Origin: Eledone cirrhosa
Lineage: Eukaryota
DNA: 64,000 bases
Direction of reading: 5' to 3'
Assembly (NCBI GenBank): GCA_964016885.1
Contig: OZ024752.1
Coordinates: 14,012,001-14,076,000, forward strand
The first letter of the stretch is position 1. Every line of letters starts with the position of its first letter. Position numbers and translations under genes: made by a program. The notes under the pieces are model-generated. The model did no database searches, was not told where the DNA came from, and saw only the letters and a program-made list of their open reading frames with translations. Of this stretch, positions 37,896 to 63,649 are shown piece by piece.

Positions 37896-38912
37896 TATAA
37901 TAGAAGAAGTTAATATGCCCGTAGGTACTAAGTACCTCTGGAAATATATAGGTTGTATATGATTTAAGTTTGTTCTATGGTATTAATTTGACAGACCAGA
38001 ACTATAATATTAAGATAAGCAGAACAAGCAAAATTCACCCAATTTTTTAAAATAAATAAAAAAATATAATTTAGATATTTACCTATTCTTTTGGCCCTTA
38101 CCGTTCGGTTTCGCTTTGTAAAACATCAGAAATCCAATGGATTTCCAATGGAAAATCAAAGTTCATCAGAGAAGCATTTTCCTTCCCTAGGGGTAAAGAC
38201 CCAGGAACGATAAAATATATTGTTATCTGCCAGCTAGCACAGATCCAAAAGGCCGAAAAATGACCTGTACGTGAACTACCCGAGGTGAAAGCGGGAAAAG
38301 CATAGACGTGTTGTCTATCTCGTTACTAAAAATAGCAGCTAAATATACACAACAGATTTGTTCTCAACATAACGGAGTATAATAATAGAAGAAGTTAATA
38401 TGCCCGTGGGTACTAAGTACCCCTGGGAATATATAGGTTGTATATGATTTAAGGTTGTTCTATGGTATTAATTTGACATACCAGAACTATATATTTCCAG
38501 GGGTACTTAGTACCCACGGGCATATTAACTTCTATTATTATACTCCGTTATGTTGAGAACAAATCTGTTGTGTATATTTAGCTGCTATTTTTAGTAACGA
38601 GATAGACAACACGTCTATGCTTTTCCCGCTTTCACCTCGGGTAGTTCACGTACAGGTCATTTTTCGGCCTTTTGGATCTGTGCTAGCTGGCAGATAACAA
38701 TATATTTTATCGTTCCTGGGTCTTTAGCCCTAGGAAAGGAAAATGCTTCTCTGATGAGCTTTGATTTTCCATTGGAAATCCATTGGATTTCTGGTGTTTC
38801 ACAAAGCGAAACCGATCGGTAAGGGCCAAAAGAATAGGTAAATATTTAAATTATATTTTTTAATTTATTTTAAAAAATTGGTTGAATTTTGCTTGTTCTG
38901 CTTATCTTAATA
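37896..38912. mobile_element. Retrozyme-like element A: ~485-bp HHR unit in two divergent arms
   Basis: Direct repeat with period 485 (37901 vs 38386), inversion at ~38490, HHRs at 38094-38175(-) and 38745-38826(+), (TA)n flanks. Confidence 0.8.
38745..38826 (+). ncRNA. Type I hammerhead ribozyme
   Basis: gcttct-CTGATGA-gctttg..caaagc-GAAA-ccgatcgg-TA-agggc. Confidence 0.88.
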
Positions 38913-39331
38913 TATATATTTATATATATATATATATTTATATATATATATATATTTATATATATATATATATATATTTATATATATATATATATATATA
39001 TATATTTATATATATATATTTATTTATATATATATATATTTATATATATATATATATTTATATATATTTATATATATATATATATATTTATATATATATA
39101 TATATTTATTTATATATATATATAATATATTTATATATATATATATATATTTATTTATATATATATTTATATATATATATATTTATATATATATATATAT
39201 ATATATTTATATCAAACATATGTGCTAAGTTTAGAATTCATTAAATATTTCGTCAAAGTTTGTAATGAAAATAAATGAACTGGGTTACTTCATTAGTTAC
39301 TCTACTTAAAGGTATCTAAATATATAAAGAT

Positions 39332-39500
39332 AGTTTCTGATTTAGGCACAAGGCCAACCATTTTTTGTGGATGTCGGTTAAATCAACTCCAGTGCGATGC
39401 TCGTACCTTATTTTATCAACGCCGCAGAGATGCAAGGCGAAGCATTTGAACTTAGAACATAAAGGGACTTAGCTAAATACCGCAAAGGATGTTCTGCGAC
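39332..39500 (-). mobile_element. Old SINE copy
   Basis: Diverged core and B box. Confidence 0.7.
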
Positions 39501-40389
39501 GCAATGTGGAAATTTAGTAACTAATTCTACACTGACAGAACCTAATTGTCTAATGGTATTTGGTAAATATATAAAATAACTTCTTTGAATCTAAACCACA
39601 GTAAGAAAAAAGCTAAATAATTAATAAGATTGCTAATTTAGCTGCATTTAACTTTACTATTTCAAAGCTGAATGTTCAGAATCAGTATAAAATCTGTTAG
39701 AATTATATAATATTCAAGGGTTTCACTGGAAGAAAATAAAATCTTCTTAAAATGGTGTTATTGGAGCTAGTATTCACTTTCTATAGTTAGAAAAGAAAAA
39801 AAAACGATTTCCTCTTTCAGTGCACACAATGTCTGAGACATGCTAGGAATATTCTGGTAGTAAATAGAATTAGTGTTAATAATATTAGTGAATTACAAAA
39901 ATTACAGAGATATTTAACATCCAAATAAACATAGGAAAACATACCTTTGAAGAAGGAAAATGAGAGGAAAATATTTCACTCTAAAATGACAAATGCTACT
40001 AAAAATCAACACACTAAAAAAAATAGAAATAGCATTTTTCAGTTACTAAAATATGTCCGGCAGAATCATGGTCTCTCTCTTTCTCTCTCTCTCTCTTTCT
40101 CTCTCTCTCTCTTTTCTCTCTCTCTTTTCTCTCTTTCTCTCTCTTTTCTCTCTTTCTCTCTCTATTTCTCTCTTTCTTTTTCTCGTTCTTTTTCTTTTTC
40201 TCTTTCTCCCTCTTTCTCTCTCTCTCTTTCTACCTCTCTTTCTCATAAAGGAATAAAATAACAAGGATTTAATTACATTAGATTATTTAATTGATTTACA
40301 AATGATTCTATCAATAAAAAAGTTGAGCTTTCGTTATTCTTTGCCTTATATGGTTATTGGTTATGTTATTAATTTGTCTAAACTATTAT

Positions 40390-40700
40390 ATGGCCTGGTC
40401 GCTCTCGAGTGCTACTTGTAACATGTAACTCAGTACAACCTGTCCCATGGTCGATCCGTCGGCGACTAAACCGGCAACACCACCAAGCTAGCTGGGTGAG
40501 GTGGGTGATATTGGACACCCTGCGGGATGAAATACAAGACCCAGAAAAGGGCGGAGGAACTCAGCAGAGTCAACGGCCTTGTTTGTTTGTTTTTTCACCT
40601 GGGAGTGAAAGGCTCCCAATTTGTTGTCACAACATATTTCTAGGAAACTCTGACAAAAACCCGTGGCTTCGGAAGTATCCGATGATGTTAACCATTTCTC
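40390..40700 (+). repeat. GC-rich structured repeat, probable RTE LINE 5' leader
   Basis: Homologous to 61222-61530 (gtgctact..gtaacatgta..ggtcg..ggcgactaaac.ggcaac). Confidence 0.55.
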
Positions 40701-40729
40701 CTTTTCGCTAATCTTTGATATTATATTGG

Positions 40730-60925: not shown

Positions 60926-61158
60926 TATCATCATTATCATCATTTTACGTCCGCTTTTCCCTGCTTGCAAGGGTGGGATGGGAACTGATTCTGGGTTGAT
61001 TTCGACAGCTAGATGCCCTTCCTAACACCAACCTCATTTTAGAGTGAGTGCTGGGTGCTTTTTTGCCGTGGCACCTCCATGATCACTTTGCAGTGGAAAG
61101 ATAGGGACCCCAGTCCCTATCATCTCATTTCTAAAGCTGAGTAAACTGGAGCAATGTG
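60926..61158 (-). mobile_element. Fragments of other SINE families
   Basis: (CAT)n tail with acgtccgcttttcc..gatgcccttccta; ctggagcaatgtgaaataaagtgtcttgctcaa CORE-like segment. Confidence 0.55.
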
Positions 61159-61221
61159 AAATAAAGTGTCTTGCTCAATATATATATATATATATATATA
61201 TATATATATATATATATATGT

Positions 61222-61835
61222 ATGTCAGGTCACCAGTTGGTGCTACTGGTAACATGTATCCCAGTACAATCTGTCTCATGGTCGTGTCATTGGCGACTAA
61301 ACTGGCAACCCCACCAAGGTTTCTTGGTGAGGCGGATGACTTTGGACATCCTGCAGGACTAAAAGCAGAACCTGTCAAAGGGCAAAGGAGCTCGTAAGAG
61401 TCAATGGCTATCCAAAATAACCGGGAGAGATGACCCCTTAACCTTTGTCAAGGCAGAATTCTAGGAGAAGGAAAACTTTTATATAACACCTGCAACCCTG
61501 ATGGTATCCAATGATGTTGACTTGTTCTTCTTTTTGGTAAATATCATCTTGGTTAAGAGAGTGGGACTGGCTTTGTGCAGTGCCTTTGCTCACTATAAAG
61601 CTTCAGGGCACAGGCATTGCTTTATATCTGGAGATCTCTCTACACTTGTCTTCACATGGTACCATGGGCCAAGCACTATGCGTCAAATAATTGTCACAGG
61701 TGTAGTGTTTGTACCAGAGTTTTCAAGTCGCTGGCTGGACTAAAAAGTCACACTCATTCAGCGCATCGGTAGGAGTTCTCCTACATGGATATACAGTAGT
61801 GGCCGTACTCGAAAACGAGTTGGCAGCCAACATAA
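61222..61835 (+). mobile_element. RTE-like element: putative 5' leader joined to 3' end with C2H2 finger
   Basis: [23 protein letters not shown]; 3' stem gtactcgaaaacgagttggcagcc. Confidence 0.65.
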
Positions 61836-62404
61836 ATATATATATAAGTGTATATATATATGTATGTTTATATATATATATATATATATATATATATATA
61901 TATATATATATATATATATATGTATATAGATAGATACACACACACACACACACACACATATATATATATATATATGTACATGCACATATTTATATATATA
62001 TATGCATATATATATACACACACACACATATATATATATATATATACATGCACATATTTATATATACATATACATATATATATATATACATGTATATATT
62101 TATATATACATGTATATATATGTGTATATATATATATATATATACACATATATATACATGGATATATATATATATACATGTATATATATATATATATACA
62201 CATATATATACATGTATATATATACATACATGTATATATATATATATATATATATATATATATATATATATGTATATACACATATATATGTATATACATG
62301 TATATATATATATATATATATATATATATATATATATATATATATATATATGTATATACACATATATATGTATATATAAATGTATATATATACATATGTA
62401 TATA

Positions 62405-63649
62405 TAGAATATAATATGTTGAGAAGGTAACACACCAGAGAGAGATATATAGTGCGTTATCAATAATACAGGGAAAAAACCCACCAGTGTATGGAATCTA
62501 TAACCTATGAAAGGCAGACTATAGACACGATAATTAAAAATATAAATTAAAGCGTAAATAAATACCTCTATAACTATATAACACACGTACAAATCCAGAG
62601 ATATGTTTCGCCAGAAAATTTGTTGAAAGAAATGTTAGTCTCGGCTCATCAGCGTGTGTAAGGCTATACATTTCAGACAACACTAAGAGAATTTTACAAT
62701 TGACTGTCCAGCTACACGTGGGAGAGAGAATTCACAGCGTGTTTAAGGGCAGTGAACCAGTGGCCTCTGAGAGACGAACTGCTAGAAAGGGCAGCCCAAA
62801 GCCACTCAGAGAAGAGTGCTCAACCAAACAGAGAGGGAAAAGGCTGTTGTTAGGAGCGAAATATCACGATAAATTAACGGAGGCATAGGCCGTCGTTATT
62901 CCCTGTAAATAATGTGCTCAAAGGGGAAGAGATCCTGAGCCCTTTAGAATATAATATGTTGAGAAGGTAACACACCAGAGAGAGATATATAGTGCGTTAT
63001 CAATAATACAGGGAAAAAACCACCAGTGTATGGAATCTATAACCTATGAAAGGCAGACTATAGACACGATAATTAAAAATATAAATTAAAGCGTTAATTT
63101 ATCGTGATATTTCGCTCCTAACAACAGCCTTTCCTATCTCTGTTTGGTTGAGCACTCTTCTCTGAGTGGCTTTGGGCTGCCCTTTCTAGCAGTTCGTCTC
63201 TCAGAGGCCACTGGTTCACTGCCCTTAAACACGCTGTGACTTCTCTCTCCCACGTGTAGCTGGACAGTCAATTGTAAAATTCTCTTAGTGTTGTCTGAAA
63301 TGTATAGCCTTACACACGCTGATGAACCGAGACTAACATTTCTTTCAACAAATTTTCTGGCGAAACATATCTCTGGATTTGTACGTGTGTTATATAGTTA
63401 TAGAGGTATTTATTTACGCTTTAATTTATATTTTTAATTATCGTGTCTATAGTCTGCCTTTCATAGGTTATAGATTCCATACACTGGTGGTTTTTTCCCT
63501 GTATTATTGATAACGCACTATATATCTCTCTCTGGTGTGTTACCTTCTGAACATATTATATTCTAAAGGGCTCAGGATCTCTTCCCCTTTGAGCACATTA
63601 TTTACAGGGAATAACGACGGCCTATGCCTCCGTTAATTTATCGTGATAT
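62405..63649. mobile_element. Retrozyme-like element C: ~540-bp HHR unit in two divergent arms
   Basis: Period 540 (62405 vs 62945), inversion at ~63092, right arm one unit plus ~19 bp; HHRs at 62581-62659(-) and 63312-63390(+). Confidence 0.85.
62581..62659 (-). ncRNA. Type I hammerhead ribozyme with full stem III
   Basis: acacacg-CTGATGA-gcc..ggc-GAAA-catatc(tctg)gatttg-TA-cgtgtgt. Confidence 0.88.

Follow-up and report, generated by a model that had tools for sequence, protein, structure and literature searches.

Animal non-LTR retrozymes resemble the elements described here: in the accessible text of the two sources consulted (Cervera & de la Pena 2020, PMC7229834; Li, Clavereau & Pollet 2026, 10.64898/2026.07.22.740005) they are non-coding, AT-rich, dispersed tandem units with one type I hammerhead ribozyme each, with consensus lengths of 51-972 bp (Li, Clavereau & Pollet 2026). 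Penelope-like elements (PLEs) are proposed there as the mobiliser and tandem cDNA as templated by a circle, a reading that we also adopt. Hydra-clade PLEs, as portrayed in the accessible text of Craig et al. 2021 (PMC8557442), are marked by DKT, RWK, a CxCX5C linker and a (TA)n target, and share with our elements (TA)n insertion, hammerheads, tandem and inverted 5'-truncated copies and a 'tail' at just one end; known non-autonomous derivatives in multiple copies include MRC1. The Poseidon PLE of Anolis has been studied in vitro (Frangieh et al. 2024, PMC11167929) and, like our elements, has two internal start sites and an AT-rich target. In these papers, the origin of tandem and inverted PLE insertions and the use of retrozyme circles as templates are hypotheses only.

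Here we analyse three elements, A, B and C, in a 64-kb window (the whole stretch of DNA studied). Their class, non-LTR retrozymes, is already known. An earlier note on this DNA had proposed a new system of larger retrozyme-like units; this novelty is not supported because earlier publications already contain the class, its link to PLEs, the inverted 5' copy and the model of a circle, and the unit sizes lie within the published range. Circles and cleavage have been shown for published retrozymes, as the accessible text of those sources reports, whereas A, B and C are known here from DNA alone. The three are likely retrozymes, and a Hydra-clade Penelope-like enzyme probably copies one predicted RNA circle from both strands of the cut target.

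Layout and ribozymes of the three elements

Upon re-measurement, the coordinates and periods noted earlier (units of 485, 560 and 540 bp) were recovered for A, B and C, as were the head-to-head arms, left on the minus and right on the plus strand in all three window elements, and the (TA)n setting, which every outer end enters (Table 1). The arms overlap at the junction by 9 nt in the family A element and by 7 nt in the family C element. The units have a GC content of 34-40%, and no LTR layout was found in any of the three. The earlier reading that the units lack an ORF also agrees with our data: the longest ATG ORFs are 26, 55 and 45 aa in A, B and C, and no RT plus GIY-YIG ORF lies within a unit. 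Tandem arrays of at least two units are present in all three families. The claim that the units lack mutual similarity is correct for C, which shows no similarity to A or B, but not for A versus B, which are weakly similar (local score 25; best of 300 shuffles, 23). 'Unrelated' is thus not supported, because A and B are remotely similar and one bulged hairpin is common to all three families.

As the earlier note had stated, each unit carries one type I hammerhead: the descriptor matched every unit once, on the sense strand, with no match on the antisense strand of the units and 0/2000 matching shuffles per unit. A single helix III mismatch kept the strict form of the descriptor from finding C; relaxed once, the descriptor matched all three. 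An Rfam search of the window and the three elements detected no hammerhead, which is a limit of the model and no evidence against these ribozymes. Relatives at 64-82% identity retain the hammerhead core, with compensatory changes in the stems. Judging from its GUU triplet and C-A mismatch, the B hammerhead may cleave slowly. Separately, an A-like stretch at another locus (L164) points to a hammerhead family of old age, and nothing there suggests a partner ORF.

Table 1. Features of the 64-kb window, in window positions; unit positions are numbered from the hammerhead cut site.
Feature	Position	Strand	Remarks
Family A left arm	37897..38495	-	1.24 units of 485 bp; outer end is site 2 (about unit position 199)
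Family A right arm	38487..38912 (right end approximate)	+	0.9 unit; outer end is site 1 (unit 92-96)
Family B left arm	47818..48526 (left end approximate)	-	1.27 units of 560 bp; outer end is site 2 (about unit 200)
Family B right arm	48529..51022	+	4.45 units; outer end is site 1 (unit 81)
Family C left arm	62405..63098	-	1.29 units of 540 bp; outer end is site 1 (unit 179-183)
Family C right arm	63092..63649	+	1.03 units; outer end is site 2 (unit 267)
Hammerhead A, left arm	38092..38176	-	type I; predicted cut after 38099
Hammerhead A, right arm	38744..38828	+	type I, palindromic helix III; predicted cut after 38821
Hammerhead B, left arm	48008..48093	-	type I; predicted cut after 48015
Hammerhead B, right arm, first of five	48625..48710	+	type I; GUU triplet, C-A mismatch above helix II; predicted cuts of the five after 48703, 49263, 49822, 50383, 50942
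Hammerhead C, left arm	62581..62659	-	type I; predicted cut after 62588
Hammerhead C, right arm	63312..63390	+	type I, 7-bp helix I; predicted cut after 63383
Hairpin 3' of site 1, family A, internal copy	37972..38002	-	descriptor; coordinates from window sequence
Hairpin 3' of site 2, family A	38543..38557	+	spacer directly before hairpin hypervariable in family A
Hairpin 3' of site 1, family B, first internal copy	48789..48812	+	descriptor; coordinates from window sequence
Hairpin 3' of site 2, family B, first internal copy	48907..48929	+	descriptor; coordinates from window sequence
Hairpin 3' of site 2, family C	63114..63153	+	descriptor; coordinates from window sequence
Hairpin 3' of site 1, family C	63570..63594	+	descriptor; coordinates from window sequence
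PLE-1 two-armed end fragment	31387..32795		one arm with site 1, one with site 2
PLE-1 broken two-armed copy	52985..55510		inverted arm ending at PLE-1 site 2, joined to RT-thumb/GIY-YIG ORF pieces (53316-54392, +); hammerhead core at 53169 (-)
PLE-2 3' piece	56700..57420	-	non-Hydra autonomous family; endonuclease end, hammerhead core at 56944, outer end is PLE-2 site 2

One fixed end site per arm

A genome search returned 469-2742 candidates per family, revealing A, B and C as dispersed families; sampled copies diverge by 0.19-2.1%, and the families are young. Analysis covered the best 40 search candidates per family, a selection biased to young, full-unit copies. Among these loci, each family has two fixed sites, about 88-120 nt apart, and 191 of 199 outer arm ends map to one of them. 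The arm endpoints do differ within the unit, as noted earlier, but they are not arbitrary. Of 74 two-armed insertions, 66 could be classified (8 could not), and 65 of these carry one site on each arm, with a binomial p of 9e-19 against free choice. Autonomous PLEs follow the same pairing (PLE-1, 7/8; PLE-2, 13/13). The elements further display the insertion signature of PLEs, with fixed 3' ends bearing a tail, 5' truncation, an inverted copy and a microsatellite target, and short TA matches occur at the element-target joins. In LINE-1 twin priming, both target strands also prime cDNA to produce an inversion, and the second primer falls at variable internal points; in A, B and C, by contrast, both starting points are fixed and there is sequence overlap between the arms.

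Comparison with the other described systems reveals further differences. The accessible text of the retrozyme sources contains no description of retrozyme insertions with two head-to-head arms and two fixed ends, and 'inverted' occurs 0 times in that of PMC7229834. Relative to Hydra-clade PLEs as described in the available part of PMC8557442, A, B and C have no ORF, reach up to 15 head-to-tail units and have their ends about 88-120 rather than 30-40 nt apart; the strict one-site-per-arm pairing is quantified here. For Poseidon, start sites did not differ between the two strands and no target homology was seen (PMC11167929), whereas the two arms of our elements nearly always differ in site and have short TA matches at their ends.

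Hammerhead-bearing PLE ends of the same layout are abundant, and the elements might be terminal remnants of long ORF-bearing PLEs, or else assembly artefacts. We regard either origin as extremely improbable, given that the 74 two-armed insertions, on many contigs, follow one rule and that units self-close for up to 15 turns with no ORF included. Checking whether units occur mainly as termini of long PLEs, we found a PLE ORF adjoining an arm at only 1 of 119 loci; that locus looks like a later nested insertion, its PLE part being older (best match 96.2% vs 99.2%). Public contigs, of unspecified run type, were compared with a B unit and with one junction (that of C); they gave no bridge over the junction and were uninformative in both cases.

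Footprints of the template

Family B is at 0.19% divergence from its own majority sequence. In 5 of 29 of its insertions, 6 private alleles are present in each unit of each arm (rough expectation 4.7), and 0 of 33 singletons are mirrored in the other arm, where a linear multimer would give up to 10 by rough expectation. At one locus (L115), two unit types distinguished by three linked markers alternate in phase across both arms. Indels within 8 nt of the ribozyme junction were seen in 0/53, 1/260 and 1/68 passes of A, B and C, respectively. Passes of family B are identical in 218 of 219 cases at site 2 and in 250 of 251 at the ribozyme junction, with a total of 10 indels in 107 kb once simple runs are left out, and its 5' ends are uniformly distributed (KS p 0.29); family C has no scars at site 1 or site 2. 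Positions 11-20 of B looked like a hot spot, which was rejected as an alignment effect beside homopolymers. Private alleles, alternating unit types and the scar-free junction fit rolling-circle copying of one RNA. The earlier proposal is thus far supported in part, namely for non-coding, PLE-mobilised retrozyme-like families arising from a template that is circular or longer than one unit. In the available text of Li et al. 2026, arrays arise from PLE ends amplified locally at the DNA level, whereas those of A, B and C look made at insertion.

Two-site PLE integration could instead use an uncleaved linear multimer, with arrays homogenised by DNA duplication or conversion and the hammerhead not involved. 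Scar-free ribozyme junctions are predicted by this explanation as well, the Anolis PLE inserted in vitro on uncleaved RNA with no need of a hammerhead (PMC11167929), and in vitro cleavage was seen for just 1 of 9 Xenopus retrozyme dimers. Two loci also speak for it: L120 is an irregular mosaic of two unit types with repeated multi-unit blocks, and L038 has arm-plus-TA pieces repeated locally. Partial alleles occur at L107 and L103. We nonetheless consider a linear multimer unlikely, since, despite the low divergence of B, 5 of 29 insertions have array-wide alleles of their own on both arms, singletons are not mirrored between arms and hammerheads are conserved among diverged relatives.

Family A departs from this clean picture at site 2, where the spacer shows 27 variants among 39 internal passes, varies between passes within 4 of 6 insertions and is the most variable of 48 windows, a pattern that would fit a template break at site 2. 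Nine of 67 family A 5' ends lie within 10 nt of the ribozyme cut site, a modest excess (local p 0.015). Both observations favour a linear or nicked monomer whose break the enzyme repeatedly jumps, which would account equally well for a single-unit bottleneck. Such jumping appears less probable still than a linear multimer: B is scar-free at every position, C is clean at both sites and the L115 heterodimer alternation requires an ordered two-unit template.

The inverted arm could also stem from snap-back self-priming, one arm being a DNA copy of the other, as in the palindrome-based model published for rotifer PLEs (Arkhipova et al. 2013). In family A, both 5' ends lie within 30 nt of each other at 9 of 25 junctions (3.1 expected), several of them at palindromes, and snap-back may act in a subset of these insertions. 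No clear excess of such junctions exists in B (3/29; 3.2 expected) or C (4/20; 2.3 expected), and the different fixed end site of each arm is left unexplained. The containment test refutes snap-back as a general mechanism, because 15 of 65 insertions, window element C among them, have arms of which neither could have been copied from the other as DNA; overall, we judge it very improbable.

In the preferred reading, copying of a circle from both strands, tandem copies would be transcribed, hammerheads would release monomers and sometimes dimers, and a host ligase would close the circle. Two look-alike bulged hairpins, spaced by about 90-120 nt, would then each be bound by one enzyme copy. The next step would leave the footprint seen in the genome, with the element joined to one target strand at site 1 and to the other at site 2 through short TA matches. 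Each enzyme would travel round the circle for 0.1-15 turns, and the growing ends would fuse head-to-head at variable points, often via short overlaps, as the junction footprints suggest. One-armed copies would reflect extension of a single strand. By analogy, the two-site footprint fits the Anolis PLE, with both strands cut and extended, two internal RNA starts and a predicted dimer (PMC11167929).

Candidate enzyme clade and bulged hairpins

The earlier note had taken the nearby PLE as evidence for the mobilising enzyme. Candidates of that PLE family number 62,640 in 3.0 Gb, or roughly one every 48 kb, and proximity is uninformative because this density makes a nearby PLE expected by chance. 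PLE-1 contains DKT, CxCX5C, CxxC and CxH, with RWR in place of RWK, and PLE-3 contains RWK, DKT and CxCX5C. By DKT, RWK, the CxCX5C linker and the (TA)n target, both are assigned to the Hydra clade, and a Pfam search of the PLE fragments returned no significant PLE domain match. PLE-1, an autonomous Hydra-type family, belongs to the candidate partner clade for A, B and C and is at most a putative donor. In a homology comparison covering three of many PLE families (PLE-2 ends by eye only), A, B and C had no match to PLE-1 loci, the PLE-1 end scored no higher than shuffles and no match to PLE-3 tails was found. Retrozymes in the accessible text of Li et al. 2026 are tied to PLE ends, whereas the candidate link of A, B and C to PLEs is a structural motif, with no end homology found. 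The analysed loci include no two-armed PLE-3 copy. A PLE-3/C chimera (L072), considered as a template switch, was set aside as a likely later nested insertion because of the age difference between its parts.

This motif is a bulged hairpin, which lies 3' of all six sites in A, B and C and occurs at about 1% per site in shuffles; the descriptor was post hoc, made with the sites already known, and its first version missed A2 and B2 and was relaxed once. We tentatively propose, as a possibility somewhat short of even, that Hydra-clade enzymes pair on two copies of this hairpin, each priming one (TA)n strand, and that both roll round one hammerhead-made circle. If true, a paired-hairpin rule would account for the 'tail at one end' of PLEs together with the inverted 5' copy, as well as for the tandem arrays of retrozymes, and non-coding circles with almost no common sequence would hijack the enzyme via only two hairpins, short signals that would suffice to direct multi-copy insertion from circular RNA. 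The genomic footprints of these young families discriminate between models and name a small candidate RNA signal and enzyme clade, so that a direct in vitro test is now specified. Among autonomous PLEs, the hairpin follows 0 of 26 copies of PLE-2 site 1, the only PLE-2 site scored, as site 2 has no true internal copy. It follows PLE-1 sites in 15 of 18 (site 1) and 7 of 7 (site 2) cases, and those of PLE-3, a family found once the descriptor was fixed, in 4 of 10 (site 1) and 6 of 7 (site 2).

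Hammerhead-bearing families and their layout

Families A, B and C, non-coding repeats with units of 485, 560 and 540 bp, are with high probability real, young retrozyme families bearing the integration footprint of a Penelope-like element (PLE). As an earlier note had claimed, each comprises a minus-strand left arm joined head-to-head to a plus-strand right arm; (TA)n flanks the elements on both sides. Its claims of one hammerhead per unit and no ORF also stood: no ORF was found, and a hammerhead descriptor that matched 0 of 2,000 shuffles occurred once per unit, on the sense strand only. 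The hammerhead core is kept in relatives with 64–82% identity, among which helices II and III show compensatory changes, and as sequence and predicted fold the hammerheads are real. Circular folding of the units is predicted to be better than that of shuffles (sense z −2.5 to −3.5, antisense z −1.4 to −2.7, 25 shuffles each), which is weak evidence.

Searching the 3.0 Gb genome yielded 1,685 (A), 469 (B) and 2,742 (C) candidates, with the best 40 per family scored. The distinct loci analysed (40, 39 and 40, with seven duplicates removed; the B set comprises larger fetched regions and the window) are skewed toward young copies carrying the full unit, and sampled copies diverge from the family majority sequence by 2.07%, 0.19% and 1.43%, respectively. 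The supposition that the units are unrelated was upheld for C, which has only hairpins and layout in common with the others, and failed for A and B, which are remotely related, most clearly around the outer-end position site 1 in a relative of A at 64% identity.

Fixed ends and the template of the two arms

The arms had been thought to end at differing points of the unit; at the sampled loci, 191 of 199 outer ends instead fall on two sites per family, lying at about 92–96 or 199 (A), 81 or 200 (B) and 179–183 or 267 (C) from the predicted hammerhead cut. Among 74 two-armed insertions at these loci, 65 use one site per arm, one uses the same site twice and eight have complex ends. Two autonomous PLE families with copies in the window follow this rule too (7/8 and 13/13), so the integration machinery is very likely that of a PLE. 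Inner junctions vary in position, with overlaps of at least 2 nt at 41 of the 74; which of the two arms is longer varies, with lengths reaching 15 units. One junction (L105) holds a 65-nt insert of short repeated unit pieces resembling repeated re-priming during joining. At another locus (L038), TA runs lie between three A pieces of one orientation, of which two share their inner end; this is likely a local duplication after insertion.

The full proposed mechanism, in which a PLE enzyme would copy one RNA circle from both target strands, is moderately favoured by sequence patterns. In B, six private alleles occupy every unit of both arms (5/29 insertions), as do eight shared alleles; 33 are singletons, none mirrored between arms, and four are partial. 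By a rough calculation, a single-unit template should give 4.7 array-wide private alleles, and a linear multimer as many as 10 mirrored ones; both figures are upper limits, since later mutations are counted among the singletons. At L115, two unit types alternate in phase on both arms, which fits what a two-unit circle would give. Ribozyme junction scars occur in 0/53 (A), 1/260 (B) and 1/68 (C) passes. For 15 of 65 insertions, DNA-level copying of one arm from the other is excluded in both directions, which argues for two putative RNA-templated starts.

Other results run against this mechanism. The A spacer at site 2 is hypervariable (27 variants among 39 passes) and is the most variable window, with 17 haplotypes in 30 passes; A also shows a small excess of 5′ ends close to the ribozyme cut and an excess of fold-back-like junctions. 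The 15-unit arm of L120 (G000:C4:68366180-68374690), with two unit types in irregular order and repeated three-unit blocks, is not accounted for by a single monomer circle. These results fit a broken template, snap-back or DNA duplication at a later stage, affecting a subset of copies.

The kind of element is already known; its architecture is undescribed and testable. In the available parts of the literature, animal retrozymes are non-autonomous PLE derivatives of 51–972 bp (Li et al. 2026, 10.64898/2026.07.22.740005), circles were demonstrated and tandem cDNA synthesis by PLEs on a circle template proposed (Cervera & de la Pena 2020, PMC7229834), the latter for PLEs too (Cervera & de la Pena 2014), inverted copies and a one-sided tail were described (Craig et al. 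2021, PMC8557442), two internal start sites with extension of both strands were shown (Frangieh et al. 2024, PMC11167929), self-priming was proposed (Arkhipova et al. 2013), and hammerheads go unmentioned in PMC13282606. Literature searches turned up no published statement of the one-site-per-arm rule or the hairpin described below; figures and supplements of the papers cited here may hold related models.

Candidate enzyme and the bulged hairpin

The nearby PLE, formerly taken as evidence, loses that weight: the copy is broken, and proximity is expected from copy number. Its autonomous Hydra-type family, PLE-1, bears Hydra motifs, and 10 of the 15 regions fetched for it contain open frames of 701–779 aa; the linker of the non-Hydra family PLE-2 differs. 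A hairpin (3-bp lower stem ending TC/GA, 2-nt 3′ bulge, upper stem) begins 4–10 nt past each of the six sites in A, B and C, against about 1% per site and 0/1,000 for both sites in shuffles, and is retained, with altered upper stems, in the majority of the diverged relatives. It follows both PLE-1 sites (15/18 and 7/7 internal copies) and is absent after PLE-2 site 1 (0/26). Because the descriptor was post hoc, the sole held-out test is PLE-3, a Hydra-type family identified later, with 4/10 and 6/7, some rows being one locus repeated.

No end homology of A, B or C to the sampled PLE families was found. Nor are the units mainly termini of ORF-bearing PLEs, a possibility the earlier note had raised: a PLE ORF abuts 1 of 119 loci, in what looks like a nested insertion. 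At L072/L248 (G000:C2, about 320311290-320314100), a C arm adjoins a PLE-3 ORF with no TA run between, probably through later insertion with deletion or, less probably, through a template switch.

Older relatives and other features of the window

The superfamily is old and diverse. Older subfamilies at about 64–90% identity keep the layout, being B-like (L092, L104, L111, L113, L123, L071, L210, L233), A-like (L042, L201, L203) or C-like (L050, L102), and often sit within TA flanks of other elements. An old family (L236-L247; 70–85% identity) is weakly A-like near site 1, with a hammerhead-like core upstream. PLE-related families are numerous in the window.

Features of the window, in window coordinates
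Feature	Position	Remarks
PLE-1 copy	53316-54392	broken
Other hammerhead family, inverted pair	51100-52000	cores 51313 minus, 51727 plus
Further short PLE-type hammerhead-like motifs	12501, 29493, 32985, 46293, 57542, 11995, 19105	ending in TA runs
U2 snRNA-like sequence	6911-7096	84.9 bits, above Rfam gathering score; possibly a pseudogene
Other non-LTR retrotransposon-like fragments and possible DNA transposase-like gene	21-1040, 3440-4860, 40708-41828, 21974-23409	RVT_1 match in 21-1040
Pyrimidine-rich minisatellite	42339-45219	14-bp repeat, 2.9 kb
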